DNA of 64,000 nt, taken from assembly GCA_965207675.1 (NCBI GenBank), contig CBDBMY010000008.1, forward strand, positions 344,291 to 408,290, given 5' to 3'. Source of the DNA: Vicinamibacterales bacterium. GTDB lineage: Bacteria; Acidobacteriota; Vicinamibacteria; Vicinamibacterales; UBA8438. Positions 1 through 36,565 of the stretch are shown piece after piece. Every line of letters begins with the position of its first letter. Position 1 is the stretch's first letter. The translations under genes and the position numbers were made by a program. The notes below the pieces were generated by a model. The model worked only from the letters and a program-made list of their open reading frames with translations, made no database searches and had not been told where the DNA came from.

Positions 1-413
1 CGGCGAACTCCGTCGAGTGGCTCCACCCGCGCGCGCCCTGGTAGAACACCACCGGCACGATGGGTCGCAATTCCGGCCTCCCCGGTTCGTCTCGGCGCTC
101 GGCTTCCCAGATGCGGCAGCAATAGCGCAGCAGCCGAAGCCGAAGCCACCGGTCCGGCGACGACTGGTGCTCAAGTAGAAGGTACATCGAAACCGCCTGT
201 CCGGTCGCGGTGTGCCGCACCCGATAGAGCAGGTCGGACTCGCTCCCGTGCAGCTCCTCGTCCACGAAGGTCCCTTCGACCGGAGTCAGCGTCGTCCACT
301 CGAAGCTCTCCCGGATGGTGTCGGGCAGCGCGGTCCGAAGCAGGCTCGCCGCTTCGTCGGCGTCGGAGAACACGGCCCGGAAGAGCCGGTCGTGGGGCTG
401 GTGGAGGTCGGTC
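1..413 (-). CDS. Rpn/YhgA-like PD-(D/E)XK recombination-promoting nuclease (Transposase_31 type), 5' part; continues past the left edge
   Basis: Own minus-strand translation from ATG 413-411: MTDLHQPHDRLFRAVFSDADEAASLLRTALPDTIRESFEWTTLTPVEGTFVDEELHGSESDLLYRVRHTATGQAVSMYLLLEHQSSPDRWLRLRLLRYCCRIW..IVPVVFYQGARGW. HDxxF, D-LL-Y, LLEHQS and VVFYxG are hallmarks of this family. It is absent from the ORF track because it has no stop inside the window. Confidence 0.6.
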
Positions 414-419
414 ATGAGC

Positions 420-716
420 GCGGGCGCCTTGTGGCGCTAGGACGAGCGCCTCCCGGGCGTCCATGACCGCCTCGGCGTCGATCGTCCGCGAGCGGTCCCG
501 GCCGGCCTTGTTCCTGAAGCAGGCCTTGTAGGCCAGCGCCTTGACCAGCCACGGCTGGCCCCAGGACCCCGGGACTGGTCCCGCACCACGGCGAGCGCGC
601 CCTCGGTGGACGCCTGTCCGGTCTCTTCGGTGTGCTGGCCGGAGCAGGGCGCGCATGTCGGCCTCGTCGAAGTCGCCCAGCCGTAGCGACTCCGCCTTGA
701 TGTTGTAGCGCATTCG
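420..716 (-). pseudogene. Frameshifted, truncated fragment resembling the C-terminal region of a large P-loop ATPase family
   Basis: Minus strand reads ..YNIKAESLRLGDFDEADMRALL.., then changes frame to ..QHTEETGQASTEGALAVVRDQSRG.., then to ..GQPWLVKALAYKACFRNKAGRDRSRTIDAEAVMDAREALVL. I recognise this only from memory as a conserved ATPase tail. No P-loop part is present, and the fragment runs into the Rpn start. Confidence 0.3.
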
Positions 717-907
717 GCCGAGAAGGCGGCGGGGCGCGCGGATCAGCGGCTACGCGGCGAGGACGACACGGCAAGACCAGCCCCACAGAGCGGGGGCGAA
801 GGACGCCCGCGGGCCAGCGACCCGCGGGACGACGCCGTCGGCGGGCGGCGCGACGAGGAACAGAATCCCGACCGTCGCGACGGCGGTACTGCTGGGCCGC
901 ACGCCGC

Positions 908-1702
908 TCAGGCGCGAACCGCGCCGCCGGCGGCGACCGCACGACCAGCGTGCGTCAACTGCTGCGCCGTCGTCCGCCCGGGTACGCGCTCGCCCCGGAC
1001 GATAGACGCCGCGAGGCGGCGAACCGCCGTCAGCGACCGCGGTCGATACCGCGTCTGCTCGACCACCACGTTGATGTGTCGAGTCCCGGACGGGGCCCAC
1101 CTGTGCAGATGCCCGTGCACGTTCACGCAACCTTCCGGAACATCGCGAAGAGGCACATGGGTCAACAGCAACTCCGGGCTGCCCGGCACGTAGACCGTGC
1201 TGTAGATCTCGTCGAAACCCTCGACATGTCCGGCGACCGTGCCGTCGAACTCGTGATTGCCGAGGACCAGCACCTTCCTGCCCGGCGCCGCCCGGAAGCG
1301 CTTCAGCCGACGGCCCGAGAGGCCGCCGATCGTGACATCGCCCAAGAACACGACCGTGTCGCCGGGGTCCACCACCCGCCGCCATGCGCCGAACAGGGCG
1401 TCGTCCATCTCCTCCGGCGTCCAGAAGGGCCTCCCGAAAACGCTGATCGTCATGGCGTGTCCGAGGTGGAGATCGCTCCACAACCAGACGCCGGGATGGT
1501 CCTGCTCGCGCAGTTCGCCCGGCGGCGTGCGCCTTGACGCGGAGAGCAGACACCACAGGCCCTGGCGCTCCTCTGACGCGACACCGAGGTTGCCGACTTC
1601 GTATCGAAGCTCCGTCTCGTACAGGGCTTTCAGACTCTCAGACGTCACGACGTCCACCTCTCCCGGAGAACATACACTCCCTTGGCGGTCGCGCATCCGC
1701 AC
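908..1702 (-). CDS. Calcineurin-like metallophosphoesterase, COG4186-like (MPE1)
   Basis: SDLHLGH, GDTVVFLGDV, VLVLGNHE, LLLTHVP and VNVHGHLH are the phosphoesterase motifs in canonical order. It is a paralog of 3054-3801 and 20533-20960. Alignment with the paralog suggests the true start lies near VTSESLKALYE (~1650). Confidence 0.85.
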   Translation of the reverse strand: MRMRDRQGSVCSPGEVDVVTSESLKALYETELRYEVGNLGVASEERQGLWCLLSASRRTPPGELREQDHPGVWLWSDLHLGHAMTISVFGRPFWTPEEMDDALFGAWRRVVDPGDTVVFLGDVTIGGLSGRRLKRFRAAPGRKVLVLGNHEFDGTVAGHVEGFDEIYSTVYVPGSPELLLTHVPLRDVPEGCVNVHGHLHRWAPSGTRHINVVVEQTRYRPRSLTAVRRLAASIVRGERVPGRTTAQQLTHAGRAVAAGGAVRA

Positions 1703-2121
1703 GATTCGCGGCGACCACTACCTTATCGACCGGGACACGGACGAGGTCGTGCGGCTGGACAAGCGCCCCACGGCGCGGGATCTCGGGCGACGGCAGGCCG
1801 AGGCGGCCGATGCGAAACGCCCGACGGCCCAACACCGCGGCGACCGAGGGGCCCCCGACCGTCCACTGAGGCGGAACCTCCGGGCCGAACGGGACACGCT
1901 CGACCGGATCCCTGTCCGAGCCGTTTCGACAGCTCCGCGCCGCGCCGCGGCCTCGCGGGCCATCAGGGAGAGGTGGCGCAGGTTCTCCTTCCGACCCCGG
2001 CCTTCACCATGCGGTCGAGCTGATGGCGTACGCGCCGTCGAGCTGAACCGGGGCCATCGACGATGCCGCTCCCGAGCCATGTTCGGCGTGGAGGCGCCCG
2101 CCGTTCCGCAGGCTCCCGCAC

Positions 2122-3057
2122 TCACGGCGCCGCCGCAGGCCCGGCGGCGTTCCCGGCCGTGCGGGCCTCGTCCGGCGGGTCGACGTCGATGCCGTCGGCC
2201 GCGATCGCGTCGCGGGCGAGCCCGCAGAAGTCCCGGGCCGTCCCGGCCCACCCGGCCGCGTCGTCGATCGTCGGCTCGGCGGCCCTGTCCGGGTTCCAGT
2301 CGACCTCCGCCTTCCAGGCCTCCCAGAGGGTTCGGATGCGATCTCGCCAACCGGGGTCCAGCACCCCGGGCTCGATCAGGTGCCGCTCGACGCTCGCCGG
2401 GAGGTCCCTGCGGCGCACCACGCTCACGCCCCTCGCGAGGCACCACGCCATGGCCGAGAAGAAGACCGCGTCGAAGGCGGGGCGGGCCGCGATGCTGGCC
2501 GCGATGCCGGGGGCGTCGAACGGCCCGTCCTTCAGCCACTCGATGTGGCGTTCAAGTACCTCGAGGTCGCCCCGGGCCTTCTTCAGCCAGACCGGCACGG
2601 CGTGCCGGATGCCCTTCCGGGTAACCGGCGGGCGCTCGCCCTGCGGTCTGCGCGCCGGCCGGCGGACCGGGTGAATCTGGACGCCCTCGGCCTCGACGTT
2701 CCTCGGGAACGGCAGCTCCCTGTCGATGTCCCGGCGCCAGTCGGCCCCGGTCCGGACCACGACGTTGTGGTCGACGCCGTCGGGGTCGTCGTCGCCGTAG
2801 ATCAGGTCCCGCGCGCGCCGGACGGCGTCCGGGGCTTCTCCGACGAGCACAAGGACATCGACGTCGCTCGCCGGCCCGGCGTCGCCCCGCGCCTTCGACC
2901 CGTAGACCACGAGCCGCTCGAGGAGCCCGCCGGGCGCCTGCTTCAGCCGTTCGAGGTAGCTTTCGAGCCACAGCCTCTCGTCCGTTTCGAGCGCCGGCAA
3001 GCCGCGGGGCTCCGCCGCCGCGCGTCCGCGCCCGGCGACGCCGGGTCGGCCGGTCAA
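2122..3057 (-). CDS. Minimal nucleotidyltransferase (Pol-beta type) fused to a HEPN/KNTase_C-like helical domain
   Basis: LERLVVYGSKARGDAGPASDVDVLVLV matches the GS-x(9-12)-D-x-D NTase motif. The C-terminal ~170 aa are all-helical (WLKKARGDLEVLERHIEW..AFDAVFFSAMAWCLARG..). There is no ATG; a TTG at 3057 overlaps the TGA of the upstream MPE gene (TTGA), so the start is tentative. This is the lower part of track ORF 2122..3933. Confidence 0.65.
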   Translation of the reverse strand: MTGRPGVAGRGRAAAEPRGLPALETDERLWLESYLERLKQAPGGLLERLVVYGSKARGDAGPASDVDVLVLVGEAPDAVRRARDLIYGDDDPDGVDHNVVVRTGADWRRDIDRELPFPRNVEAEGVQIHPVRRPARRPQGERPPVTRKGIRHAVPVWLKKARGDLEVLERHIEWLKDGPFDAPGIAASIAARPAFDAVFFSAMAWCLARGVSVVRRRDLPASVERHLIEPGVLDPGWRDRIRTLWEAWKAEVDWNPDRAAEPTIDDAAGWAGTARDFCGLARDAIAADGIDVDPPDEARTAGNAAGPAAAP

Positions 3058-3801
3058 GGCGCGTCCCCCTGTCCGGCGGCGGTTCCGGCGTCCGGCCAGC
3101 CCTTCGCCCAGGCGATGAAGAGGTCGGTCGTGGCGTTCCCGCCCAGGGGCGCCCGGTCCAGGCGGCGGGCCAGCCTGCGCACGTCCGCCACGGGGATCGG
3201 CCGGTAGCCGATCTGCTCGACGCACACGTTGATCCGGGTGTCGTCTACCGACGTCTTCCGGTGGACGTGCCCGTGGACGTTCACGTAGCCGGCGGGCAGG
3301 TCGTCCAGGGGCACATGGGTGAAGAGCAGGTGGGGCCTCGCCCGCCAGGTGGGCGCAGGCCACCACCGCGAACGCCCGCCGGAGGCGGCGGATGTGGGGG
3401 TGGTCGTGGTTCCCGGCCACGAGGATCTTGCGGCCGGGCCTGCGCCGGAGGCGGTCGATCAGGCCGTCGGTCGGGCGGCCCATCGCGACGTCGCCCAGAC
3501 AGATCACCGTCTCGCGGTCCAGCACGTCGCGCGTCCAGTGCTCCAGCAGGTAGCCGTCGCCGTGGTGGCAGCCCCGGAACGGGCGGCCGAAGACGGCGAC
3601 GCTCGCCCCGTGTTCGAAGTGCGGATCGGAGAACACCCACGTCCGGTGTTCGTCCCGCGGGCGCAACGTCACGCCCAGCAGCCGTCTGGATGCGGCCAGC
3701 ACGGCCGCGGCGGCGTGCCGGTCGTGGGCGGGGATGCGCCCGTCCGCGACCTGGGCGGTCAGTTGCGCCTCGTAGATCCGTTGAAGCTCGAACTCGTTCA
3801 T
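3054..3801 (-). pseudogene. Metallophosphoesterase paralog (MPE2) with one frameshift
   Basis: MNEFELQRIYEAQL..WVFSDPHFEHG..VICLGDV..ILVAGNHD is followed by a frame change near 3325-3335 to ..HLLFTHVPLDDLPAGYVNVHGHVHR..INVCVEQIGYRPIPVADVRRLARRL. The gene is collinear with MPE1. It is split between track ORFs 2122..3933 and 3054..3314. An assembly error cannot be excluded. Confidence 0.7.
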
Positions 3802-3888
3802 GCCCGTTTCATGACGGAACCGTCCGGCCGGCGATCCCAGCGCCTTCGCCGCGGACGGGCGCTGCCCGGACCGCCGCCGCTCGGCCCG

Positions 3889-3933
3889 GGTCCGCACCCA
3901 CGACAGCGCCGCGTGCGCCGACTCCCTCATCAC
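3889..3933 (-). pseudogene. lon: Short Lon protease fragment (segment preceding the Ser box)
   Basis: It encodes VMRESAHAALSWVRT. Nucleotides 3897-3935 are almost identical to 16498-16536 of the intact lon, which encodes VMKESAHAALSWVRA. Confidence 0.6.
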
Positions 3934-3935
3934 GC

Positions 3936-4133
3936 GGCATCAAGGAGAAGGTGCTGGCCGCCCGCCGCGCCGGACTGGCGCGGGTCGTCCTGCCGAAGCA
4001 GAACGAGAGCCGGGGCGAGGACGATCTCGGCGACGACCTGCGGCGCGAGATCGGCGTGCGGTACGTGTCGACGATCGACGAGGCGCTCGATCTGGCGCTG
4101 TCGCCGCCGGCGGCGGGGCAGGCCGAGGGGTAG
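3936..4133 (+). pseudogene. lon: Lon protease C-terminal fragment (Lys box to stop), inverted relative to the adjacent fragment
   Basis: GIKEKVLAARRAGLARVVLPKQNESRGEDDLGDDLRREIGVRYVSTIDEALDLAL aligns position for position with the last ~65 aa of the intact Lon (GVKEKVLAARRCGLAGVILPTANASEVDEKLGEDLLRGIDVRFVSTIDEMLARAL). The Ser box PKDGPSAG is missing. Confidence 0.7.
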
Positions 4134-4216
4134 ACGGGCTACGCGCCGGCCCGGCGCCGCCGCTCGCCGTCGACGACGGGCCATCCGCCACGCATGGGGT
4201 GGGTCCGGCGTCCCCG

Positions 4217-4600
4217 TCAACGCTTCCGTCCGCCGTCGGTGCGTTCCCGTTCGGCGGCGCCCCGTTCCACCGGCTTCCGTGCCCGTTCGAGGGGCGGCCG
4301 ATGCGTCTCCGGCGGGGGCGGGTCCGTCCGGTTCCTCGGCGGGTCGATGTCGGGGTATTGCGTCCTGCGGTCGTCCAATCGTCCGATGAACTCCGCGGGA
4401 TCGAACCCGATGGCCTTCGCCACCTCCATGAACTCGACGACGTCGAGCCGTCTCTCGCCTCCCTCGTACTTGGCGACGAACGACTGGGGCCGGTTCAGGT
4501 GGCCCGCGAGTCGGGCCTGGGTCAAGCCCGCGGCAATGCGCATCTTCTTCAACTGACGTCTGAAGTGAGCGGTTCTGGGCCCGAAGCTTGACCTCGGCAC
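4217..4600 (-). CDS. XRE-family helix-turn-helix transcriptional regulator
   Basis: LKKMRIAAGLTQARLAGHLNRPQSFVAKYEGGERRLDVVEFMEVAKAIG is a classic Cro/C1-type HTH followed by the ..E.G.R.. pattern. The C-terminal tail is Pro/Arg-rich. Confidence 0.85.
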   Translation of the reverse strand: MPRSSFGPRTAHFRRQLKKMRIAAGLTQARLAGHLNRPQSFVAKYEGGERRLDVVEFMEVAKAIGFDPAEFIGRLDDRRTQYPDIDPPRNRTDPPPPETHRPPLERARKPVERGAAERERTDGGRKR

Positions 4601-4870
4601 CCGTTCCGTTTACGCTGGTTCGCCCGATATCCCATATTGGGATGTCCGGGTCTGCAAGGCCTCGGGTCCGGGACCATGGGTTGAACGAGCGGCGCCCGTT
4701 CCATGTGGATTTCGTGTTCAAATATCCCATAGTAGGATATTTCGGCGATCCGTGGGGGGCCCCGCCGTCCGGTGTGTGCGTCAACGCATTACCGGAGGAG
4801 CAACGAGAGTGACAAGCCGCCCGCAGCTTCGGGATCGCGCCGTCCGGTGAGAGCCGGCTTTCGGTGCTGA

Positions 4871-5398
4871 ATGGCCGTGCAGCCGGCATTCGGAACCTCG
4901 GATCACGAAGGAGGACGAACCGTGTACGACATCCTGATCCGTTCACGTCGACACCAACAGCCGCAGCCGCTCCCGAAGGCACGTGTTCGGACTCGCCGCA
5001 ACGCTGTGACCTCGGTTCTCCTCGCCGCGTTCATGGTTCTGCCCGTCGTCGCCAGCGGCCAGAGCGGTCCGGCGGATCGAGCCCGCGAGGCCCCTCCGTC
5101 CGCCGCCGCCCCGACTTCCGCAGCTCTCGACATCGATCGCCTGGTCGCCGCGGCCGCGGATCGCGGCGTCCTGCTCCAACGCTCCCGGCCCGGCCAGGGC
5201 GGCAATTCGAACGCGAACACCATGAGGTGGGTCGGGATCGCCATGCTCGGTGCCGGGGGCCTGTTGGCCGTCAACGGGGCGCTCGCCACCTGCGGCACGA
5301 TCGACAGTGGCGTTTACCGCGAAACCGGCATGTGCGGGGGCCGCGTCATCGTCGGAGGCGGCGTCGCCGCTCTAGGGGCGTGGTTGATGACCCGATGA
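4871..5398 (+). CDS. Hypothetical membrane/secreted protein
   Basis: This is a track ORF. It has a hydrophobic N-terminal segment (VTSVLLAAFMVLPVVASGQ) and C-terminal Gly/Ala-rich hydrophobic helices (MRWVGIAMLGAGGLLAVNGALA, VIVGGGVAALGAWLM). The true start is probably internal. I recognise no family. Confidence 0.4.
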   Translation: MAVQPAFGTSDHEGGRTVYDILIRSRRHQQPQPLPKARVRTRRNAVTSVLLAAFMVLPVVASGQSGPADRAREAPPSAAAPTSAALDIDRLVAAAADRGVLLQRSRPGQGGNSNANTMRWVGIAMLGAGGLLAVNGALATCGTIDSGVYRETGMCGGRVIVGGGVAALGAWLMTR

Positions 5399-5551
5399 AC
5401 TGCGCTCCCTTCGCCGGGCGCTCGATCCCCGCATCGAGGTCGGCGGACCGCCGAATCGATGCGGCAGGACGGCTGGATGCGGTTGCCGCGGCGGCGTGAG
5501 CCGTCCGGAACGAGGGAATGCCGACCTCGCAGTTCCGATGGAGGTGCAGAT

Positions 5552-6460
5552 ATGAGGGCGATCTGGGGTGTACTCGCGGCGAGTGTTCTTGCGTCGGCGG
5601 TGCCCGACGCGGCCTGGGCGCAGGACAGGTTCATCCTCCTCGCGACGAATCGGACGGGCACGATGGAGGACGAACTCAACGCGGCCGGCGCCGACGGGTA
5701 CCGTTTCGTCGGTACCCAGGGCGGCGAGACGGCCTTCGGCGGCAGCGAGGTGGTCGTCATCATGGAGCGCGACCCGGAGGGTCGACGCTACCGCTACATG
5801 CTGTTGGCGACGAGCCGCACGGCGACGATGGAGCAGGAGCTCAACAGCGTCCCCCCGGAGTTCGAAGTCGTCGGCATGACGATCTTCGACTCCACGTTCG
5901 GGGGCGACGAGTCGGCGGTGATTCTGCAGGCCGAGGCGTCCGCGTTCACCACGTCATCGAACTCGTCCTCCGCCACCGCGTCCGGGGGGCGGCCCGACGC
6001 CCCGACGGCTCGGGAGTCGAACATCTACCTCGTTGCGGAGGACGGCTCCCGCCGACTGGTTGCGCCGAGCGCCGTCCGGCGCATCGAGGAGGAAGCCGGA
6101 GGGTTGTTCAGCCGGTCGAAGCTGTTCGCGATCCTCGCCGGGCTCGACGCCCCGACCAGAACCTCAGACCACTATCAGACCTTCGATTTCGAGACGGCGG
6201 ATCGGGGCGCCATCGACGAACTGGTGCTCGTCCGGTTCTACGAAGAGGCCGACTACGGCGAGCGCACGTTCGACGTCCTGCCCGGCGGCGTCAACCTGGA
6301 AGCGGTGATTCCACTCAGCACCGAGCTGCTCGACGACGGGATGTACCGCCTCCGGCCGGCCGAGCCCCTCGGTCTCGGCGAGTTCGGCTTCATCCGCCTC
6401 GAGACGGGTGAGGACATCACCCGGGGCTTGACGGTTCACGATTTCGGGGTTGAGCCCTGA
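5552..6460 (+). CDS. Secreted protein with internal duplication
   Basis: ATG 5552 follows GGAGGTG. The signal peptide is MRAIWGVLAASVLASAVPDAAWAQ. There is a duplicated module: RFILLATNRTGTMEDELNAAGADGYRFVG and YRYMLLATSRTATMEQELNSVPPEFEVVG. Confidence 0.7.
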   Translation: MRAIWGVLAASVLASAVPDAAWAQDRFILLATNRTGTMEDELNAAGADGYRFVGTQGGETAFGGSEVVVIMERDPEGRRYRYMLLATSRTATMEQELNSVPPEFEVVGMTIFDSTFGGDESAVILQAEASAFTTSSNSSSATASGGRPDAPTARESNIYLVAEDGSRRLVAPSAVRRIEEEAGGLFSRSKLFAILAGLDAPTRTSDHYQTFDFETADRGAIDELVLVRFYEEADYGERTFDVLPGGVNLEAVIPLSTELLDDGMYRLRPAEPLGLGEFGFIRLETGEDITRGLTVHDFGVEP

Positions 6461-6489
6461 AGCCCGCGCACTGATCTCCCAGCAGCGCC

Positions 6490-7275
6490 ATGGTGCGGGC
6501 CGACCAAAGGTCAAGGGAGATGACGAAAGAGCAAGGACAATCGGAAGCTCATTCGACCGGACTGAGGACACCGGCCACGACACCGGCCATGCCTTCCGGC
6601 GGCGCCGACACCGAGGCCGATGCGCCCGGCAGGGTCGTCGCGGCGGTGAACGCTAGCACTGACCGCATCCTCCGAGCCTTCGACGAGAAAATCAGGTACG
6701 ACACGACCAAACAGCAGGCAATCGACCGTCAGCACGCCGAACTCGTGGACCACCGCCGCGATCTGGTTGCTCAAGCCGCCGCCCCGTTCGTCTTCGGCAT
6801 GATTCACCACCACGCAGAGATCGAAAAGCTTATCGTGGCGGTGCGCGAGGAATCCGCACCGCCCTCGCCGCCCGGCCGGCCGCGCCCGCTGGCGCGGATT
6901 CTGCCGTGTCTGACCCGCGCGTGGAATCGGTGGACCATGCCCCGGCCCCGTGGCACGAACCCAAGCGGCGGCGATGTTCCGCCCGTCCGAGCCGAAATGC
7001 CCGCGGCCAAGGTCTGCGAGTTGTTGTCGAGTCTGCAGGAGGACATCGAGCACGTGCTGGGCGAGAACGGCGTCGCCGCGTACCGCCCCGAAGTCAGCCA
7101 ACCGTTCGATCCGGAACGTCACCGGGTCGTAGGCAAGACGCGGCCAACCGACGACGAAGCCCGTTCCGGCACCATCGCTGCCTGCCGGGGGCCCGGGTTC
7201 GAGCGTGGAGGACGGATTCTCGTAAAGGCACCCGTGTCGGCCTATCGGTACGAACGGACGTCGCCGGATTCCTAA
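6490..7275 (+). CDS. GrpE-like nucleotide exchange factor (divergent)
   Basis: The C-terminus (..VLGENGVAAYRPEVSQPFDPERHRVVGKTRPTDDEARSGTIAACRGPGFERGGRILVKAPVSAYRY) fits the GrpE beta-domain pattern (G-V..I..G..FDP..H.A....G.I....GY...R.LR.A.V.V). The N-terminal part is helical (FDEKIRYDTTKQQAIDRQHAELV). There is an unusual Pro-rich insert. The gene sits immediately upstream of an Hsp70 gene. An alternative start is at 6520. Confidence 0.65.
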   Translation: MVRADQRSREMTKEQGQSEAHSTGLRTPATTPAMPSGGADTEADAPGRVVAAVNASTDRILRAFDEKIRYDTTKQQAIDRQHAELVDHRRDLVAQAAAPFVFGMIHHHAEIEKLIVAVREESAPPSPPGRPRPLARILPCLTRAWNRWTMPRPRGTNPSGGDVPPVRAEMPAAKVCELLSSLQEDIEHVLGENGVAAYRPEVSQPFDPERHRVVGKTRPTDDEARSGTIAACRGPGFERGGRILVKAPVSAYRYERTSPDS

Positions 7276-7343
7276 AGGCTCCGATCCGACACCTGCGGCC
7301 AACACGGTCCACCGACCGGCAGTCATCGAAAGGACGTCACGAC

Positions 7344-9032
7344 ATGGCCACGGCCGACAAGAGCAACCCCGTCTTCGGCATCGACCTCGGGACCACGTAC
7401 TCGTGCATAGCGTACGTCAACGACGCTGGCAAGACCGAGGTCATCCCCAACTCAGACGGCGACCTCACCACGCCTTCCGTCGTCTACTTCGAGGATGCCC
7501 GGAACGTCGTCGTGGGCCAAACCGCCAAGGACGCGCTGCCGACGAATCCCGAGCGAGTGATCTCCCTGGTCAAGAGACGGATGGGAGACAAGGACGCGAA
7601 GTTCGAGGGCGTGACCGACGCGCCGCTGACGCCGCACGAGATATCGGCGCACGTTCTCCGGAGGCTCGTCCAAGACGCGCAGGACTACACACGTCGGGAG
7701 GACCCGATCACAGACGTTGTCATCACCTGCCCCGCCTACTTCGGATTCGCAGAGAAGGAGGCAACCCGCCAGGCTGGGGAAATCGCCGGCCTGAACGTGC
7801 GCCACGTCATCCCGGAACCGACCGCCGCGGCCATCTCCTACGGCATGATCGACGCGTCCCGCGACGAGACGGTGCTCGTGTATGACCTCGGAGGGGGCAC
7901 CTTCGACGTGACCGTTATCGACGTAAAGAAGGGCGACATCGAGGTCGTTTGTGTGGACGGAGACCACGATCTCGGCGGTGCCAACTGGGATGAGGACGTC
8001 GCAACGTGGTTTGCCGAGAAGTTCTCCAAGGAGCACCATACACCGACCACCAAGCTGATGAGCGACGCCGAAGCTTGGCAGGAATTGCTCGCATTGGCAG
8101 AAAAGGCCAAGAAATCCCTGACGGCCAGGAACAAATATACCGCGAGAATAACCCACGGCACCAAGCGATCGCAGGTCGAGCTCACCCGGGAAGAATTCGA
8201 CCACATCACCGGCGGCCAGCTTGAAACCACCATCATGGCGACGAAGAACGTCCTCAAGCATGCGCGGGAGAAGGGCCGCAGCAAGTTGGACAAAATACTA
8301 TTGGTCGGCGGGTCGACGTATATGCCTCAGGTCATGGAGCGCCTGAAGCGGGAGTTTCCCGAGGTTCCCGACATCGGCCTGCTCGACCCGAACCAAGCGG
8401 TGGCCAAGGGTGCCGCGGTGTTCGGCTACAAGTGCTATCTCGACGACGCGGTCGCGCGCAAGGTCTCGGAGCAGACGGGCGTTGAGGCTCCGGCGGTCGA
8501 GGATCTGTCCGATGCGGTGCGCGAACGCGCGGAGGCGAGCGTCGCGGCCGAAGAAGGGCTGCAACTTGCCCGAATGCAGAGCTTGACACGCAAGGAGATC
8601 CAAAACGTGACATCCAAGAGTTTCGGCACCAAGGTCTTCGACAGCGATACGGGCACAAGCTACGTCCACAACCTGATCGTGGCGGACGACAAGGTGCCGA
8701 CGGAGGTGACCGAGGGCTTCTTTACCGTGGAGGAAAACCAGACCGGGGTCGACGTGGTGTGTCTGGAGAACATTCTGCGTCAATCGGGGCGGGTCGATGT
8801 CGATGCATGTACCGAGATCGGGAAAGCGGAGCTGAAGTTCGCCAGACCTCTCCCCGCGCAGTCCCCGGTGCAGATTCGCTATGCGCTGTCCGCCGATGGG
8901 CTTCTCTCCGTGCACGGGAAGGACCCGACCACCGGAGGTGAAGTTCAGATGGAGATCGCAACCGCAGCGATCCTGAGCGCCGGCGAGGTTGAGGAAAAGA
9001 GACGCCGGAGCGGGGCGATGAAGGTGAGCTGA
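7344..9032 (+). CDS. Hsp70-family ATPase lacking the helical lid (non-canonical DnaK paralog)
   Basis: GIDLGTTYSCIAY, DLGGGTFDV, LLVGGSTYMPQV and DPNQAVAKGAA are the Hsp70 ATPase motifs. A beta-sandwich substrate-binding domain is present (..NLIVADDKVPTEVTEGFFTVEENQTGVDVVCLEN..PAQSPVQIRYALSADGLLSVHGKDPTTGGE). The protein ends ~25 aa after it, with no lid and no EEVD. GAAAGGA lies upstream of the ATG. Confidence 0.95.
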   Translation: MATADKSNPVFGIDLGTTYSCIAYVNDAGKTEVIPNSDGDLTTPSVVYFEDARNVVVGQTAKDALPTNPERVISLVKRRMGDKDAKFEGVTDAPLTPHEISAHVLRRLVQDAQDYTRREDPITDVVITCPAYFGFAEKEATRQAGEIAGLNVRHVIPEPTAAAISYGMIDASRDETVLVYDLGGGTFDVTVIDVKKGDIEVVCVDGDHDLGGANWDEDVATWFAEKFSKEHHTPTTKLMSDAEAWQELLALAEKAKKSLTARNKYTARITHGTKRSQVELTREEFDHITGGQLETTIMATKNVLKHAREKGRSKLDKILLVGGSTYMPQVMERLKREFPEVPDIGLLDPNQAVAKGAAVFGYKCYLDDAVARKVSEQTGVEAPAVEDLSDAVRERAEASVAAEEGLQLARMQSLTRKEIQNVTSKSFGTKVFDSDTGTSYVHNLIVADDKVPTEVTEGFFTVEENQTGVDVVCLENILRQSGRVDVDACTEIGKAELKFARPLPAQSPVQIRYALSADGLLSVHGKDPTTGGEVQMEIATAAILSAGEVEEKRRRSGAMKVS

Positions 9033-9093
9033 TGTTCGAAGGGGCGGCGCCAGTTGCGCCGGCCGTGGAGAACCGGCGCTGAAGGTGCAATTG

Positions 9094-10065
9094 ATGGTGG
9101 CGCAGAAGCTGCGGATGCTGCTTGAGACGCTGGAGTGCCCGGACGTCTACCTATTCCTCGGCGTAGATCGGAGCGCCCCGCTGGAAGAGCTGCAGGCGGC
9201 CGCTGAGAAGAAGTACGTCAGTACACATAACCAGAGCTCGCGAAACGCGGTGACCCGGGCCGCTGGCGAATTGGCGGGGCTGTGCAAGTCGGACATCTTC
9301 AGGAACGCGCGGACCAAGGCGGCGTACGACCGGGAGCTGGACCGGCAGGACCCGCAGCGGCAGGCCGCCGCGGCGCAGCAGCGGCAGCAAGCTTGGGCGC
9401 GAGTCACCGGTGCCGTCGCCGCCGCTGCGGACCGGGTGGTCAGGTACTCCGGGCGCGTCTCCGCCGGGGGAGCCGCGCTGATAGTCGCGGGGACGGTTCT
9501 GGGCACAGGTTTCGATGCGCCTTCGGGCGTATCGATACACAGGCTGGGAGTGCTGGCCTTTCCGTGCGGTTTCACGGCATTCCTCTACCGGGGACCCCGG
9601 CACCACACCGCCGTTGTCGCGGCCGGGGGATTCCTTGCGGTCGTGCTCGGAATCGTTGCGCGAGCCATTCATTCTTCCTTGACCGCGCAAGATGTGGCCG
9701 GCGGCGATGGGTCTCTGATGGAACTGCTCGGTCTGCTGAGACTGGTGGGCGGATTGGCTCTTCTGAGCGCGTTGGCGTCGTTCGTGTTCAGGGAGTCCTG
9801 GCACATCAGGGTCGGCGCCGCGGCGAAACCCTTTATGGAGTGGTGGCTTGCGACGATAGCCATTACCGGGAATCCGCTGATCATGGCCGGCGTCACGGGA
9901 ATGGCGTTTGCGCTGACCTTCGGTCTGACGGCCGGAGTCGTCATGACCTTTCTCTTCGGGGGCGGCGCGGACGAAAGGGTCCGAGCGGCGACCAGCGCGA
10001 CCGCATACGTTTCCGGCTTCCTCATCGTTGCAGGCGTTCTCCGGCGGCTCTTTTCGCGTCGCTGA
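9094..10065 (+). CDS. Polytopic membrane protein with N-terminal HPD-less J-like domain (paralog 1)
   Basis: DVYLFLGVDRSAPLEELQAAAEKKYVSTHNQSSRN..AGLCKSDIFRNARTKAAYDRELD follows the J-domain helix II / loop / helix III layout, with HNQ where HPD is expected. About six hydrophobic helices follow. Confidence 0.8.
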   Translation: MVAQKLRMLLETLECPDVYLFLGVDRSAPLEELQAAAEKKYVSTHNQSSRNAVTRAAGELAGLCKSDIFRNARTKAAYDRELDRQDPQRQAAAAQQRQQAWARVTGAVAAAADRVVRYSGRVSAGGAALIVAGTVLGTGFDAPSGVSIHRLGVLAFPCGFTAFLYRGPRHHTAVVAAGGFLAVVLGIVARAIHSSLTAQDVAGGDGSLMELLGLLRLVGGLALLSALASFVFRESWHIRVGAAAKPFMEWWLATIAITGNPLIMAGVTGMAFALTFGLTAGVVMTFLFGGGADERVRAATSATAYVSGFLIVAGVLRRLFSRR

Positions 10066-10216
10066 GGGGTCGGCTGGCGCATGAGGTCGCGGCGGACCCG
10101 AGGCCGGGACCGAGAGCGGTCCCGCTCGGCGTGAAGACCGAGATGACAACGAGGCAACCACCGGCGGGCGGAGCGTGGTCACGGGCGGAGTGCTGTCGGG
10201 ACGAGGAGTATGAGTG

Positions 10217-11383
10217 ATGGTGCCGCCAAAGGTATGGACACTGCTCGAGGCCGTGGGATGCGAAGACATCTACGGGTTCCTGGGCATGGAACGCGACGCT
10301 CCCTTGGAAGAGCTGCGGGCCGCAGCCGAGAGAAAATACGAAGCGATACACAACCAGAGTGCGAGAAGCGAAGGTGCGAGAGTCGGTGCGGCCCTGGCCG
10401 GATTGTGCAAGTCGACTATATTCAGGGATGCGGAGACGAGGAGCGGGTACGACGACGAGGCGGCGCTGCGGGGCGAAAGGCGTGCGGACCCTGCAGGTCA
10501 GCAGCTTGTCACGGCGGAGGAACGACAAAGGGCGGCAGCGGCGGCCGCGAGCGCGGCGGCTGCGGGCGTGGCGAGTGCGGTGGCCGAGGGGGCGAGAAGC
10601 GCGACCGCGAGCGCCGTGCGGTACGTCGAGGAGTACTGCAGAGGCATTTCGGCTACGGGGGCGGTTTTGGTCGCCGTGGGAGCGGCTCTGGCGGCGGGAG
10701 TCAGCGCACCGGCGGGCGCGATCGTCCTCGGCCTGGGAACGGCGATCTTTCCGTGCGGGTTCGCGGCGGTTATGTATAGGCGGTCCCGGGACTGGATAGT
10801 GCGCGTCGGCGGGGCCGGGCTTGTACTGGTCACGCTGGGCATCATGGGCGAGGGCTATTCAGCCGCAGCGATTGCGGAAGGTAGGGCGAATCCGGTGGTC
10901 TTGGCCCTGGTGGGCGGCTCGAGGCTGTTGGGCGGACTGGTCCTCGTCGCGGGCTTGGCGTCGTTCGGGCTGAAGGAAGCTTGGCACGTGAAGGCCGCCG
11001 ACACGACGGGCCCCGCCGTGGAGTGGTGGCAAGCGAGGATCGGCGCGGGGAACCCGGCGATCGTGCTGGGCGCCGCGGGGTTGGCGTTTGCGGCCGCGAT
11101 GGCGATCGCCGTCCGCCCCGTCGTGAGTATCGTTTTCGGCTCCGGGGGCGCGGGATTGGTGGAGTCCGTGGTGTCGGCGGCGGCCTCTTACTCTGCTTTA
11201 CTCCTTGGTGGAGGCGTCGCGTGGCGGTTGGCCAAGCGCTACGGGGGGGTAACGGAGCGTGGTGGGGACACTCTCCAATGCGGGAGGTGCGGAACGCGGT
11301 CGGCTCGCAGCAAGTGTCGGGATGGCGACGGCTTCAGAGTTACGTATCGCTGTGCCGTCTGTGGGGCCCGCATGGAGGGGTAG
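10217..11383 (+). CDS. Polytopic membrane protein with HPD-less J-like domain and C-terminal zinc ribbon (paralog 2)
   Basis: The J-like domain is DIYGFLGMERDAPLEELRAAAERKYEAIHNQSARS..AGLCKSTIFRDAETRSGYDDE. The membrane region is paralogous to that of the previous gene. The C-terminus reads CGRCG..CAVCG. A GGAG RBS is present. Confidence 0.8.
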   Translation: MVPPKVWTLLEAVGCEDIYGFLGMERDAPLEELRAAAERKYEAIHNQSARSEGARVGAALAGLCKSTIFRDAETRSGYDDEAALRGERRADPAGQQLVTAEERQRAAAAAASAAAAGVASAVAEGARSATASAVRYVEEYCRGISATGAVLVAVGAALAAGVSAPAGAIVLGLGTAIFPCGFAAVMYRRSRDWIVRVGGAGLVLVTLGIMGEGYSAAAIAEGRANPVVLALVGGSRLLGGLVLVAGLASFGLKEAWHVKAADTTGPAVEWWQARIGAGNPAIVLGAAGLAFAAAMAIAVRPVVSIVFGSGGAGLVESVVSAAASYSALLLGGGVAWRLAKRYGGVTERGGDTLQCGRCGTRSARSKCRDGDGFRVTYRCAVCGARMEG

Positions 11384-11609
11384 ACGACACGTGGGTGCCG
11401 TTAGATTCGGTCTGGGTGGGGCCCATTCGGGTAGAGAACTCAGTTATGGTGCTTCTGGCCGCGGTGGCTTATCGACCGGGGGCAATGACGACGCGGGGCC
11501 CGCTACTCGGCAGCGGTTTGGCGCGTCGGCCGGATGACGGGATGCAGGGGATCTGTGGAGATCACGGAGAAGGGACTCGGTCGGAGAAAGGCGCAAGAGG
11601 GTACTAACT

Positions 11610-19595: not shown

Positions 19596-19805
19596 TTCGA
19601 TAACTCTCCAGCGGTTCTCGAACCGCTCGGACATTCGATGAAAGGGCCAGCCGGCGCGCTCCGAGCCTCGCGGATGGACGCAGAGCGCACGGAACAACCG
19701 GGCTGCGCGCGAGCCGCCCTCCGCCACGTTGGGCGTTGGCAAAGATCGCCAGCAAGGGCAACCGAACGACTTCCCCGGATTCAGGAATTCGGACGTGTTC
19801 GTCCG

Positions 19806-20532: not shown

Positions 20533-20960
20533 TCAATCCGTAGAAGCCGCCCAAGCGATCCGGTCGATCGTCGTCGCACCAGCGCGCGTCCGCCCGCCGA
20601 CGAGCGCTCTGGCGAGCGGCAGGACCTGGGTGCGGATGTCGAGCGGCCGGTAGCCGGTCTGCTCGACGCTCATGTTGATCCACGGGCTGGCCCCGAACGG
20701 CCAGAGTCGTGGTGGTGGCCGTGCACGTTGACGCACCCGTCGGGCACGGAGACGAGCGGCACACTTGCGTGACGATGAGTGGAGGATCGGTGTGGAGGAC
20801 CAACGTCATCACCGAGGCGTCGGCGCCCATCCGACGCGCCTGCCAACGGTACCGAGTGAAGTTGTGGTTGCCGAGGATGACGATCTTCCTACCGGGGAGG
20901 TTCGCGGAGGGAGGCGTCCAGCGACCGAAGAATGCCGCAGCGGCCGCCGAGATCATGGAA
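20533..20960 (-). pseudogene. Decayed third metallophosphoesterase paralog (MPE3)
   Basis: GRKIVILGNHNF, PPLIVT / HASVPLVSVPDGCVNVHGHHH and WINMSVEQTGYRPLDIRTQVLPLARALV are found in three different minus-strand frames. The N-terminal motifs are not recoverable. Confidence 0.5.
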
Positions 20961-22533: not shown

Positions 22534-23074
22534 CGGGGTAGGAGGTGCGGCCTGTGAGGTTGGGAACGGAGTGGGAGCATTGGAATGATGTGCTCGTCCT
22601 TGTCGAAGGACTCGTCGGCGAGATGGAGAAGGGACCACGCGGGAAGGCGGCGGCAATAGGGACTTGAACCGAGGCCGACCGACGGACCAGAGGAGCTACG
22701 GGCACAATGGGCAATAGGGCCGTCGGCTGAAGCTCGGTGGCGGGGCTGGGCCATTGAACTGGCCACAAAACAACACGGCGCCATGGATAGCGGCATGGTG
22801 GACAGGCGGCCGTTTCGAAGGGGGGTTGGTCCGGGAGGGAACCCCGGGAACGCCGGTGGATGCGGGCAGTACCTGGCGGGCGGCGGCGGTGCTCTTCACG
22901 ACGAGTCCGGGATGGCCGGCGACACCCACTCGCGGGCAAAGTGGTCGACGACGAGCGTGTTGCCGTCGTCGCACCGGGGACAGGGCGGCAACGAACGGCC
23001 GGTCAGCGCCTCGTAGCGGTCCCGATAGTCGGTGATGGCCGGGCGGGCGCGCTCTGCCGATGGCAGCGGGGAGG

Positions 23075-23388
23075 CGTGCGATCAAATTGTGGCGCTCGGC
23101 GATCCACGCGCAGGTGCCCAGGGTCAGGATCTGCTGGCGGTTGAGCCGGCGGGGGTGGGTGAAATCGACGGCCTCGAGCGTCGCCGGATAGCGCAGCTTG
23201 GCGGCGTGGAGGCGCCGTTCGAGCTTGCGCTGCTCGCGGGTGGTCCACTCGGTGTCGACGAGCAGGCCGAGCCGCTCCTCGAAGCCGAGGGCGGCGGCCT
23301 CGTCAGTCTGGAGCTGCCGCTGGAGGGCGTCGGCCATACCGCCGAGCTTCATGGCGTTGAGCTTGTCGAGGGTCTGTTCGATCAGCAC
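23075..23388 (-). pseudogene. istB: IS21-family IstB helper ATPase, N-terminal remnant
   Basis: From GTG 23388: MLIEQTLDKLNAMKLGGMADALQRQLQTDEAAALGFEERLGLLVDTEWTTREQRKLERRLHAAKLRYPATLEAVDFTHPRRLNRQQILTLGTCAWIAERHNLI. Family similarity ends before the Walker A box. Confidence 0.6.
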
Positions 23389-36159: not shown

Positions 36160-36565
36160 CGTGCCTCCCTTCGGTAGCAGGAATTCTGAGGCAATGATGC
36201 TCGCCCGGTAGCAGATCAGGCGAGGCAATGCATGGGAAATCTACAGTTGTCGCCAACACCGACACCCCGGCGCCGTACGAACGCTCCGGCGAGTCGTCGC
36301 CCGGGCCGCGAGCCGGGCGGCTCGCCTGATCAGCAACCAGTCCAACTGGACGACCGGACGGGCTTGGGGCAGCCCCGACGATAGGGACCTGATCTGCACC
36401 AGCGACATCATCGAGGAGCTCGAGGCCGCAGCCGCCACCCCCGCCGGGAGACGTGCGGCCCCGCGGTTCGAGCAGGGGTGCTTCTGCCTCGAAGCGGTCC
36501 TCGCGTACGCCCACGCCGTCGAGGCTCAGAAGGTACGCGGGGCCGCGGGGGCCGCCGACGCCGAG

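Follow-up and report, generated by a model that had tools for sequence, protein, structure and literature searches.

The described systems closest to the locus analysed here combine a nucleotidyltransferase (NTase) of the MNT type with a HEPN domain. Type VII HepT/MntA systems share with it an MNT NTase bearing the motif GSx10DxD, a HEPN homologue, and carriage on mobile elements, but their MNT gene lies upstream of a separate HEPN gene, whereas our locus fuses both domains in one 311-aa open reading frame whose HEPN domain lacks the RX4HXY motif and its acceptor tyrosine. [quoted passage not shown] Our locus also departs from both systems in adding an obligatory upstream metallophosphoesterase (MPE), a partner present in neither of them as described (PMC7641770, PMC11586414, PMC13000451).

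Two other groups of proteins invite comparison. KNTase/ANT(4'), AadA/ANT(3'')(9), LinB and HalB likewise join a pol-beta-type NTase lobe to a helical HEPN-like lobe devoid of the RNase motif, but our protein is not a member of these families by sequence and matches their structures with low TM-scores, and those enzymes have no phosphoesterase partner. The MPE falls in the same subfamily as COG4186/aq_1665/phrog_547, with all five motifs present, although the MPEs of Vicinamibacterales add an N-terminal helical hairpin of ~50 aa and a C-terminal tail of ~45 aa that are absent from phage homologues. The MPE and NTase-HEPN genes form a conserved two-gene cassette, previously undescribed and confined to uncultured soil Acidobacteria (Vicinamibacterales), of which one copy lies in the window, our term for the whole 64-kb stretch of DNA that was analysed.

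Organization of the locus

Open reading frames and the raw sequence reveal three genes on the minus strand, running in the order MPE2 (3801..3054), NTase-HEPN fusion (3057..2122) and MPE3 (1648..908). Relatives used for comparison are designated by L numbers.

3054..3801, minus strand: MPE2, with ATG at 3801 and stop codon TGA at 3056..3054; 248 aa after removal of an extra base
3336..3337, minus strand: single extra G that frameshifts MPE2 (comparison with L001, L064, L065 and L066)
3054..3057, minus strand: TTGA overlap of the MPE2 stop and the NTase-HEPN start (raw sequence)
2122..3057, minus strand: fused MNT-type NTase-HEPN protein, 311 aa (open reading frame, Pfam, alignment, fold search, hhalign)
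908..1648, minus strand: MPE3, an intact metallophosphoesterase of a second subfamily, 246 aa, GTG start (open reading frame, Pfam)

The TTG start codon of the fusion gene (3057..3055) overlaps the MPE2 stop in the context cc-TTGA-cc, and a Shine-Dalgarno-like run, GGGGGA, resides within the tail codons of MPE2, 7-12 nt 5' of that start. A public gene caller chose the same TTG (protein P0001), and the 246-aa MPE3 product is also called by public gene callers in L064-L066. The overlap, which an earlier note on this DNA had pointed out, is kept at four nucleotides in relatives with 42-85% NTase identity, reading GTGA in most of them and ATGA in L007; the window and L001 have TTGA. The described gene arrangement is confirmed as real, and it is far beyond chance because this overlapping pair was found in ~20 independent loci.

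The metallophosphoesterases

Pfam Metallophos matches both MPE2 and MPE3 (E 2.5e-7 and 9e-7), as does phrog_547 (E 2e-33 and 2e-34, respectively). The best relative of MPE2, by structure and by sequence, is 1xm7 (aq_1665; family profile E 4.9e-12, Foldseek E 5e-7), which is also its sole relative of solved structure. All five MPE motifs (DxH, GD, GNH[DE], H and GHxH) are found in MPE2, the metal-binding motifs of the MPEs are intact, and the invariant positions of the family alignment are D59/H61, G103/D104, N131/H132, H162 and G177/H178/H180. Judged by these matches, the MPEs are assigned to the COG4186/aq_1665-type (phrog_547) metallophosphoesterases, in agreement with the earlier description of the partner phosphoesterase as COG4186-like. 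MPE3 is ~39% identical to MPE2, and two degenerate copies of a third subfamily (L008-downstream / L003 type) accompany the intact genes:

1961..2057, minus strand: MPE relic in the "420-bp spacer" between the fusion gene and MPE3; first ~33 codons, frameshifted (blastn, tblastn)
20551..20932, minus strand: third-subfamily MPE relic, C-terminal half (aa ~111-237) (tblastn)

The spacer relic is matched by blastn to L008 6916-7127 and L003 7280-7388 and by tblastn in two pieces (2057-2019 and 2005-1961), and the distal relic has at least two frameshifts and a Gln in place of the motif-IV His. A further MPE paralogue downstream of the fusion gene had been noted before, and is borne out by the intact MPE3; the spacer once thought to separate them is itself the remains of another MPE. 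The earlier count of three MPEs in the window, two of them decaying, stands for the third copy (20932..20551), which is a relic, but not for MPE2, which is intact in four public assemblies.

The N- and C-terminal extensions are shared by MPE paralogues whether or not an NTase partner is present, and therefore no feature of the MPE marks it as NTase-specific. The MPE core, by comparison over aa 53-202 only, has relatives in ~988 phage genomes, where its neighbour is often DNA polymerase I or a 5'-3' exonuclease, and no member of the MPE/NTase-HEPN family occurs among IMG/VR viral contigs or PLSDB plasmids. Identification with PdeM (TIGR04123) was rejected on scores of 32.4 and 17.4 bits against a curated cut-off of 150, and neither a ligase nor Lhr, as in a PdeM-like setting, was found nearby. 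Also rejected was the Cluster A mycobacteriophage MPE (Bxb1 gp47 / A10ZJ24 Gp48, phrog_221): Bxb1 gp47 falls in phrog_221 (E 4.5e-116), and hhalign gives a probability of 1.4% against the window MPE family.

The NTase-HEPN fusion protein

The fusion protein is divided as follows:

2668..2985, minus strand: NTase (MNT) domain, aa 25-130 (Pfam NTP_transf_2, alignment, MNT structures)
2620..2667, minus strand: Pro/Arg-rich interdomain linker, aa 131-146, RPARRPPGDRPPVT (alignment)
2188..2619, minus strand: HEPN-homologous five-helix domain, aa 147-290 (hhalign, fold search)
2482..2505, minus strand: 12-nt tandem duplication, atcgcggccagc followed by atcgcggcccgc, adding four residues (IAAS followed by IAAR) (sequence, alignment)

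Pfam NTP_transf_2 matches aa 33-103 (E 7e-8), and the GSx10DxD motif (G53 S54 x10 D65 x D67) is invariant across 18 aligned family members. The linker keeps G140 and P143 in all aligned sequences and T146 in almost all, and at aa 132-136 its structure is predicted with low confidence. The nearest outgroups of the NTase are classical MNT genes that overlap PF05168 HEPN genes by 4 nt. The Pfam HMM for HEPN alone gives no match to the window protein, but profile-profile comparison of the C-terminal domain with the HEPN partners of these nearest minimal NTases, which themselves match PF05168 at E 1e-15 to 1e-16, yields an hhalign probability of 96% (E 3.5e-9, 124 columns). Foldseek matches the domain to 2hsb (AF_0298; TM 0.81 on the target) and to the sacsin HEPN domain 3o10 (TM 0.66). 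The C-terminal domain is a true HEPN homologue, with no sequence relatives beyond its own family among 1.84 billion representatives. The earlier reading of the protein as an MNT-type NTase and a HEPN domain in one polypeptide is upheld, and the profile searches proposed at that time recover Metallophos and NTP_transf_2 with Pfam, while HEPN emerges from profile-profile comparison and fold search.

An effector role for HEPN, suggested in the same note, is not sustained. No conserved R-x4-6-H or RX4HXY motif occurs anywhere in the C-terminal domain of the family alignment, and H58, R90 and Y95, invariant in related HEPN partners, align to R, K/N/T/D and W, respectively. Because the signature residues of the partners are lost and RX4HXY is absent, the domain is unlikely to act as an RNase effector. 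The analogy of KNTase/ANT, GlnE and HalB suggests that the degenerate domain now most plausibly serves to bind the acceptor or to regulate the enzyme.

Over the whole chain, the best folds are those of ANT(4')/KNTase, AadA, ANT(9), LinB and HalB (E 6.5e-5 to 1e-3), with 6un8, 6p01, 1kny and 6fzb at the top (E 6.5e-5 to 6.5e-4, TM 0.36-0.51); for the two-domain enzymes as a group the TM-scores are low, at 0.3-0.46. The NCBIfam models ANT_4p_I and ANT_3pp_II, whose cut-offs are 350 and 400 bits, give 14.8 and 17.9 bits, and the protein has no match to Pfam KNTase_C or DUF4111. The possibility, raised previously, that the C-terminal domain is the KNTase_C of an aminoglycoside NTase is not borne out by sequence, although the whole-protein fold, and the fold only, resembles ANT(4')/AadA/HalB most. 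Hailong HalB was rejected as an identity (20.6 bits, cut-off 190), and its channel partner HalA is not conserved among the neighbours. The 12-nt duplication, which places IAAS and IAAR in the loop that joins HEPN helices one and two, is unique to P0001 in the alignment and specific to the window lineage.

Conservation of the gene pair and its surroundings

An MPE gene followed by an NTase gene recurs in the ~20 independent loci, all from Vicinamibacterales and with several per genome, so that the pair whose conservation the earlier note had put in question is indeed conserved elsewhere. The NTase and MPE identities co-vary (83/87.5, 79/81, 59/59 and 50/34%), and dN/dS is 0.3-0.5 for both genes, indicating purifying yet fairly relaxed selection. 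Wherever the NTase gene is full-length, the paired MPE, or some part of it, lies directly upstream (truncated in L019). MPE paralogues occur around the pair as arrays or relics and also alone; one lone MPE lies right behind a CI-like repressor, in the company of an integrase, a type IIG restriction enzyme and a PIN toxin-antitoxin pair. Either the MPE or the NTase gene is frameshifted or truncated in ~40% of related loci, and an MPE2-type gene is disrupted beside an apparently intact NTase gene in several (the window, L014, L015, L019 and L024).

Neighbours in the 22 loci surveyed are mostly transposases and integrases, with few known defence genes and no third conserved partner gene. The window is itself rich in mobile elements, a setting that fits the conflict or selfish module envisaged earlier. 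Neither the MPE nor the NTase-HEPN protein scores above the cut-off of any named defence or toxin-antitoxin model. Two features lie upstream of the pair:

3951..4133, plus strand: C-terminal stump, 60 aa, of a Lon-like protease (comparison with relatives)
4217..4543, minus strand: Xre-type HTH gene, syntenic with L002

Since L002-like relatives carry the full 1240-aa Lon-like gene, the stump marks a deletion junction just upstream of MPE2. A Lon-like neighbour is present in three loci only (the window lineage, L002 and L017). The Xre-type HTH gene is a possible regulator of the pair, but is not conserved together with it.

Possible functions of the gene pair

Pairs in which one enzyme adds a group and another removes it are familiar from DarT/DarG, toxSAS and small alarmone hydrolase, Legionella DrrA (SidM)/SidD, and the AT and AR activities of GlnE. 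To our knowledge, the hydrolases of these pairs have other folds (macrodomain, HD, PPM), and none is a calcineurin-like MPE. By analogy, our gene pair may follow the same logic, with a transferase that would add a nucleotide-derived group and a hydrolase that would remove it; DrrA and GlnE also join an NTase with a HEPN-like domain (PMC3710099). We tentatively propose that the pair is a mobile cassette derived from a MntA/HepT toxin-antitoxin pair: the NTase would nucleotidylylate a target, and the MPE, being co-translated, would undo that modification or process its product. The NTase would place an NMP on a hydroxyl of a cellular target, perhaps at the 3' end of an RNA, on the side chain of a protein or on the NTase itself, with harmful or regulatory consequences. 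The MPE, translated first, could then act as a phosphodiesterase that removes or destroys the nucleotidyl product, making it an enzymatic antidote or "eraser", and the additional MPE copies and remnants near the pair may be spare or orphan antidotes.

In favour of this proposal are the conservation of the pair and its overlap, the purifying selection on both genes, the neighbourhoods rich in transposases and integrases, the invariant catalytic residues in the alignments of both enzymes, the asymmetry by which the NTase always has an upstream MPE while the MPE also occurs alone, and the joint inheritance and divergence of the two genes. Toxin-antitoxin ancestry is supported by the MNT and HEPN gene-pair outgroups and the 96% HEPN alignment, and with the putative antidote encoded first, on the 5' side, the gene order fits that discussed for toxin-antitoxin dyads (PMC3710099). 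Against it stand the scarcity of defence neighbours, the lack of any named-model match, and MPE extensions that are not NTase-specific. The loci with a disrupted MPE2-type gene beside an apparently intact NTase argue specifically against toxin and antidote: a strict pair should not tolerate a disrupted MPE, unless paralogues nearby make good the loss or the frameshifts are artefacts of long-read assembly. It is unlikely that the MPE is a dedicated de-nucleotidylylase; such a role would give the MNT/HEPN (type VII toxin-antitoxin) lineage its first genetically hard-wired pair of writer and eraser. The MPE would then supply the AMP-removing phosphodiesterase that is missing from, and speculated about in, the HepT/MntA and FhepTA literature, where the reversal of MNT nucleotidylylation is raised explicitly as a question (PMC13000451, PMC11586414), and would provide a first biochemical role for the widespread phage and prokaryotic aq_1665/phrog_547 phosphoesterases. 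An MNT-HEPN protein always found behind a coupled, motif-intact MPE is a natural place to seek a nucleotidylylation-reversing enzyme, and likewise the role of these phosphoesterases, whose catalytic core is related to proteins of ~1000 phage genomes.

Coupling of a phosphoesterase to a nucleotidyltransferase is also a recurrent design in end repair, in which the activities work in sequence, as in Pnkp (phosphoesterase and ligase), bacterial PolX-PHP, and CCA-adding enzymes with an HD domain. A somewhat unlikely alternative is accordingly a nucleic-acid end-healing and tailing module for repair or against toxins, in which the MPE would clear 2',3'-cyclic or 3'-phosphates or trim damaged 3' ends before the NTase adds nucleotides to the same RNA or DNA end, with HEPN binding RNA. 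PdeM is the closest named bacterial MPE model (albeit at 32 bits against 150), the phage relatives often lie near replication or exonuclease genes, and for a counter-measure against RNase toxins the mobile-element setting would be apt; HEPN domains are, moreover, RNA-binding folds (PMC3710099). Yet the pair has no conserved ligase, kinase or helicase nearby, the family is absent from the viral and plasmid collections searched, and a sequential pathway does not predict that the MPE is often alone and the NTase never. The MNT-type NTases characterised to date act on proteins or small molecules and not in RNA repair (PMC7641770, PMC11586414).

It is unlikely that the fusion protein is an ANT/Lnu-like nucleotidylyltransferase of antibiotics or metabolites, with a substrate-binding HEPN-like lobe and an accessory phosphoesterase, the alternative previously called mundane. 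The whole-chain fold matches and the several IS-flanked copies in a soil bacterium, as befits a resistance determinant, speak for such an enzyme, and motif-less HEPN domains at aminoglycoside NTase C-termini are a documented class (PMC3710099, Table 1). However, the ANT models score 15-18 bits against 350-400 and the TM-scores are low (0.37-0.46), both domains are closest by sequence to MNT/HEPN toxin-antitoxin pairs rather than to ANTs, and a coupled, obligatory MPE with MPE arrays has no counterpart in known ANT loci. Were it to encode a resistance enzyme of the ANT type aided by a phosphatase, or a module for end repair, the cassette would still be new.

An FhepTA-like toxin-antitoxin system, in which MNT would keep HEPN off by self-(oligo)AMPylation and the MPE would activate the toxin as a de-AMPylase, seems improbable. 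Fused MNT-HEPN proteins on mobile elements have been defined experimentally (PMC13000451), AMP-removing phosphodiesterases have been postulated, and Lon-like proteases, another proposed regulator, adjoin the pair, but in three loci only. The RX4HXY motif and acceptor Tyr are absent, with Trp at the aligned position and the R/H equivalents not conserved; in place of a short hydrophobic linker there is a conserved Pro/Arg segment of 16 residues; and a toxin activator that is constitutively co-translated is hard to rationalise.

The MPE2 frameshift

The frame change at 3336/3337 cuts MPE2 into an N-terminal portion of 155 aa and a C-terminal portion of 93 aa. The extra base is found in the window only, which reads GAGGCCCCAC where L001, L064, L065 and L066, public assemblies from one and the same population as the window, read GAGCCCCAC. 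Apart from this base, L066 equals the window base for base over 654-3432, and public data contain an intact 248-aa protein, P0106, identical to base-corrected MPE2. The frameshift is an error or a private mutation and not lineage decay, and because four public assemblies carry MPE2 intact, the earlier suggestion of a simply decaying locus does not explain it. That the window cassette is a non-functional relic amid IS debris, as the MPE2 frameshift, the two MPE relics, the truncated Lon-like gene and IS fragments in the window, and the lesions in ~40% of related loci might suggest, is very unlikely given those assemblies, the intact NTase and MPE3 genes, and the retained catalytic residues and dN/dS values that signal selection on both genes.

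The extra base also yields an accidental 603-aa open reading frame (3933..2122) that runs on into the NTase frame; for annotation, the lesson is that a single extra base both creates the "603-aa fusion ORF" and makes MPE2 look like a pseudogene. Similar frameshift-made fusion open reading frames, at different positions, are seen in other assemblies.

Organization of the MPE and NTase-HEPN genes

The window has a G+C content of about 70%. Examination of ORFs and raw sequence revealed three minus-strand genes extending from 3801 down to 908, and the genes and arrangement described in the earlier note, which encode metallophosphoesterases (MPEs) and a nucleotidyltransferase (NTase) fused to a HEPN domain, are present. 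The genes and associated remnants are as follows.

3801..3054, minus: MPE2, with an ATG at 3801, a TGA stop at 3056..3054 and a change of frame at 3336/3337
3057..2122, minus: NTase-HEPN, a 311-aa ORF with a TTG start at 3057..3055
2057..1961: MPE relic (first ~33 codons) in the 420-bp spacer between the NTase gene and MPE3
1648..908, minus: MPE3, intact
20932..20551: third MPE-like stretch, a frameshifted C-terminal half

The MPE2 stop and the NTase-HEPN start overlap in the sequence TTGA, and MPE2 is recovered by tblastn in two frames, as aa 1-155 and aa 156-248. Both MPE2 and MPE3 match Pfam Metallophos, and residues 33-103 of the NTase-HEPN protein match NTP_transf_2; its C-terminal half has no Pfam match. 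The MPE remnants previously noted in the window are indeed there and prove more extensive than described, given the relic in the spacer, which matches the gene located 3′ of the NTase in L008, one of the related loci from public assemblies (L001-L066). Scans of positions 1-6000 for promoters and terminators and against Rfam yielded no matches. A 12-nt tandem duplication within the NTase-HEPN gene (2482-2505, minus) adds the residues IAAS ahead of IAAR to the loop that joins the first two HEPN helices; this insertion occurs in this lineage only, producing a protein of 311 aa versus 307 aa in its relatives.

Public copies of the locus and the MPE2 frameshift

No public contig is exactly identical to the window. 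Relative to the L001 locus (ENA contig ERZ26051807:ctg103170), the window carries 16 substitutions and one extra base in 10.7 kb, the latter being a minus-strand G (window GAGGCCCCAC versus GAGCCCCAC elsewhere). This base is likewise absent from L064, L065 and L066, all three of which encode exactly the NTase protein of the window, and L066 is the same as the window over 654-3432 apart from the extra base. Moreover, a public intact MPE2 of 248 aa (P0106) is identical to the repaired window sequence. Because the extra base is missing from these four loci and an intact protein exists, the MPE2 lesion is an assembly error or a private mutation and not a property of the lineage, which speaks against the earlier concern that the locus is simply decaying. 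One of the substitutions, at 2465, gives Val in the window NTase versus Ala in L001; Val is the family consensus, and the window allele is carried by short-read assemblies (ROBB21-1 scaffolds and Logan SRR10996927).

The extra base also gives rise to a spurious 603-aa ORF (3933..2122), since the NTase frame is open upstream in this G+C-rich DNA. Four database proteins (P0082, P0103, P0104 and P0094) were considered as candidate Rosetta-stone fusions of MPE and NTase and were rejected, as each carries out-of-frame junk between the two domains. Judged by that junk, they are frameshift read-throughs like the 603-aa ORF; they come from other assemblies, and the position differs in each. Any +1 slip within the MPE opens into the NTase frame in this G+C-rich family, and such apparent fusions represent an annotation trap in long-read MAGs.

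Conservation and co-inheritance of the pair

About 100 database proteins, each of about 307 aa, are related to the window NTase-HEPN protein. In a distribution scan using one genome per species, full-length relatives were found only in Vicinamibacterales/Vicinamibacteria MAGs (Acidobacteriota), often with several per genome. No member of the family was found in IMG/VR viral contigs or PLSDB plasmids, and distant matches in other phyla (31-37% identity, N-terminal domain only) occur without an MPE.

At essentially every locus with a full-length NTase, the end of the MPE gene is the start of the NTase gene, with the junction GTGA in most loci, ATGA in L007 and TTGA in the window, preceded by a GGGAGA/GGGGGA run. 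In a divergent subgroup, a short spacer of roughly 60-80 nt lies between the two genes (as in L006 and L060). Identities of NTase and MPE to the window copies co-vary (83/87.5, 79/81, 59/59 and 50/34%), and dN/dS is 0.3-0.5 in both genes alike. The exceptions comprise truncated copies (L019, L020, L026 and L027) and loci with a frameshift in one gene (L014, L015, L021, L024 and L025). The association is asymmetric, in that MPEs occur solo and in arrays, but a paired MPE, complete or partial, directly precedes every full-length NTase. The pair is a mobile, multi-copy and frequently eroded two-gene unit that is inherited together.

In L019, an NTase-HEPN gene that appears intact comes after an MPE2-type gene cut to its last 82 codons (5750-6921); downstream, three or four more MPE paralogues or fragments are found on the other strand (7849-12087). 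This arrangement is relevant to the question of whether paralogues can stand in for the paired MPE.

An MNT-type nucleotidyltransferase fused to a degenerate HEPN domain

The family alignment contains an invariant GSx10DxD motif (G53 S54 ... D65 x D67) and the C-terminal "NVEAEG" element of minimal NTases (MNTs), followed by a conserved Pro/Arg-rich linker and then a helical domain. An AlphaFold model (pLDDT 76.6) comprises an alpha/beta NTase lobe and a five-helix lobe. In Foldseek searches the whole chain is nearest to ANT(4')/KNTase, AadA, ANT(9), LinB and HalB (E 6.5e-5 to 1e-3, TM 0.3-0.5), and the helical lobe alone is nearest to HEPN proteins (AF_0298 2hsb, TM 0.81 on target; sacsin HEPN 3o10, TM 0.66). 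When the C-terminal domain was searched alone against 1.84 billion representative proteins, only family members were retrieved.

The nearest NTase outgroups are MNTs of ~110 aa, each followed with a 4-nt overlap by a ~140-aa gene whose product matches Pfam HEPN PF05168 (E 1e-15 to 1e-16). A profile of these outgroup HEPNs aligns to family residues 160-293 with 96% probability (E 3.5e-9, profile-profile). The NTase-HEPN protein is therefore best explained, on the basis of these alignments, as a fusion of an MNT/HEPN gene pair. Direct comparison with a canonical fused MNT-HEPN (L003 10145-10999) aligned the NTase motif alone.

The earlier note had cast the HEPN domain as the effector and had pointed to an Rx4-6H motif in homologs of the C-terminal domain as a check. 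Neither Rx4-6H nor RX4HXY, the RNase signature plus acceptor Tyr of HEPN toxins, is conserved anywhere in the family alignment, and the invariant outgroup residues H58, R90, D94 and Y95 correspond to R, a variable K/N/T/D, D/N and W, respectively, which speaks against that role. Thus, an MNT-type NTase with an intact active site is joined to a degenerate HEPN domain. Motif-less HEPN domains fused to NTases are a recognised class that includes KNTase, GlnE and DrrA, in which the HEPN has been assigned a likely part in substrate binding or regulation (PMC3710099). Membership in the MntA, ANT, HalB and PdeM families was rejected, all NCBIfam models scoring far below cut-off. With PADLOC, the NTase core gave only weak matches to PDC-S09 and PDC-M05A, and the MPEs gave none.

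Identity of the metallophosphoesterase

MPE2 and MPE3 match phrog_547 ("phosphoesterase", E ~1e-33). Among solved structures, the sole match to the family profile is Aquifex aq_1665 (1xm7, E 4.9e-12), which is also the best match to the MPE model (pLDDT 86); LpxH and PptH come next, at a distance. Each of the five metallophosphoesterase motifs is invariant throughout the three MPE subfamilies. The partner of the NTase is thus a COG4186-type phosphoesterase that is catalytically complete to judge from its motifs, encoded first and joined to the NTase gene by a conserved 4-nt overlap.

Relatives of the catalytic core (aa 53-202), at 31-35% identity, occur in about 988 phage genomes and often lie in replication modules. 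An N-terminal helical hairpin of ~50 aa and a C-terminal tail are specific to the Acidobacteria family and are kept with or without an NTase downstream. An experimentally studied mycobacteriophage MPE, A10ZJ24 Gp48 (PMC12287305), was considered together with Bxb1 gp47 as a source of function and rejected, because these proteins belong to a different family (phrog_221, hhalign probability 1.4% versus the window MPE family).

Possible functions of the cassette

The NTase active site, the coupled MPE, their co-inheritance and the asymmetry of the association tentatively suggest a toxin-antitoxin-like writer/eraser unit, a reading that we favor with considerable doubt. In this reading, the NTase would attach a nucleotidyl group to a hydroxyl of RNA, of protein or of the enzyme itself, the MPE would cleave the resulting phosphodiester by hydrolysis, and further MPE paralogues would act as spare antidotes. 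The main evidence against it comes from several loci, the window among them, in which the paired MPE is disrupted beside an intact NTase, a state that long-read homopolymer errors and neighbouring paralogues could explain.

An unlikely alternative is that the two enzymes act in sequence on nucleic acids, in end healing followed by tailing. Less probable is a small-molecule transferase resembling aminoglycoside nucleotidyltransferases (ANTs); ANT/KNTase-type enzymes are closest to the cassette in fold, but the cassette fails their sequence models. Type VII HepT/MntA systems and the fused FhepTA family described in 2026 (PMC13000451) are closest in ancestry, and a self-AMPylating toxin of the FhepTA kind with the MPE as activator might be envisaged; the cassette fails the defining HEPN motif of these systems, and the missing RX4HXY makes this improbable. 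That the cassette is a dead relic is more improbable still in view of the intact copies in the population.

No literature was found on MPE plus NTase/HEPN operons, COG4186 or DUF1489, nor any account in which a calcineurin-like phosphoesterase is the obligatory coupled partner of an MNT-HEPN fusion. The nearest remark is that some MNT-linked HEPNs are associated in operons with a HAD phosphoesterase (PMC3710099), and removal of AMP from HEPN toxins by hypothetical phosphodiesterases has been speculated upon (PMC13000451, PMC11586414). The cassette is restricted to one uncultured lineage; its conserved architecture is suggestive and brings one open question within experimental reach.

Genomic context

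Related loci carry integrases, transposases, AbiEii, GmrSD, a type IIG restriction-modification enzyme, TrbI and HNH genes. Among 148 neighbouring ORFs from 22 loci, the commonest families are transposases, further MPEs also occur, and no third conserved partner was found; since only about 8 of the 148 match PADLOC models, we make no claim of a defence island. An Xre-type HTH was rejected as a dedicated regulator because it is not conserved.

In the divergent subgroup (L003-L006 and L060; e.g. L003 6869-9627), the pair belongs to a translationally coupled four-gene DUF1489-MPE-NTase-HEPN-ankyrin operon. These operons form part of long same-strand gene arrays that also include HNH nucleases and DNA methyltransferases, and in L003-L005 a canonical fused MNT-HEPN (PF01909 plus PF05168) lies 1.2 kb downstream of the pair. 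A standalone MPE paralogue (P0193, L061/L062 5232-6777) begins 10 nt beyond the gene of an HTH-peptidase S24 (CI/LexA-like) repressor and adjoins a tyrosine integrase. Behind it come a PIN toxin-antitoxin pair, an Eco57I-type enzyme and AbiEii, and the paralogue resembles the cargo of an integrative element.

The window is densely populated with mobile-element genes, among them a Mutator-family transposase, three rve integrases, an IstB fragment and a Transposase_31 gene, and it also contains an SSB gene. The mobile-element genes and a protease remnant are located as follows.

1-415, minus: 5′ part of Transposase_31 (YhgA-like), running off the window start
3951..4133, plus: Lon-like stump of 60 aa; the full protease flanks the pair in L002
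29321-30661 (plus), 27365-28396 (minus), 34375-36228 (minus), 56981-57880 (plus) and 22696-23388 (minus): other mobile-element genes (Mutator, rve, IstB)
58131-61251, plus: three adjacent tyrosine-recombinase-region ORFs, with Phage_integrase in the first (58131-59342) and third (60262-61251)

The Lon-like stump marks a deletion just upstream of MPE2. The corresponding tandem-AAA protease was rejected as a third component, as the only loci where it adjoins the pair are those of the window lineage, of L002/L009 and of L017. Proteins of this family (1217-1393 aa) contain two AAA+ modules, two Lon lids and a Lon_C domain. Besides the stump, the window has a full copy (16089-19742, minus), and a third copy, 37-46% identical, lies just beyond the window start; members of the family are located at L001 14010-18191 and L002 2442-6164. 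These proteases are paralogous expansions beside HTH genes.

A 1111-aa protein whose sole match is AAA_19 (helicase/relaxase-type P-loop; 52359-55694, minus) and a 287-aa protein with SSB and OB-fold matches (45095-45958, plus) are possible remnants of a conjugative or replicative element. Finally, a six-gene run (4922-10843, plus) encodes proteins of 158 aa and 302 aa, a GrpE-like protein (weak match), an Hsp70-like protein of 562 aa, and proteins of 323 aa and 208 aa, four of the six having no Pfam match. The genes for the 158-aa and 302-aa proteins share synteny with L002 and in part with L015, and the run looks like a non-canonical Hsp70 module.
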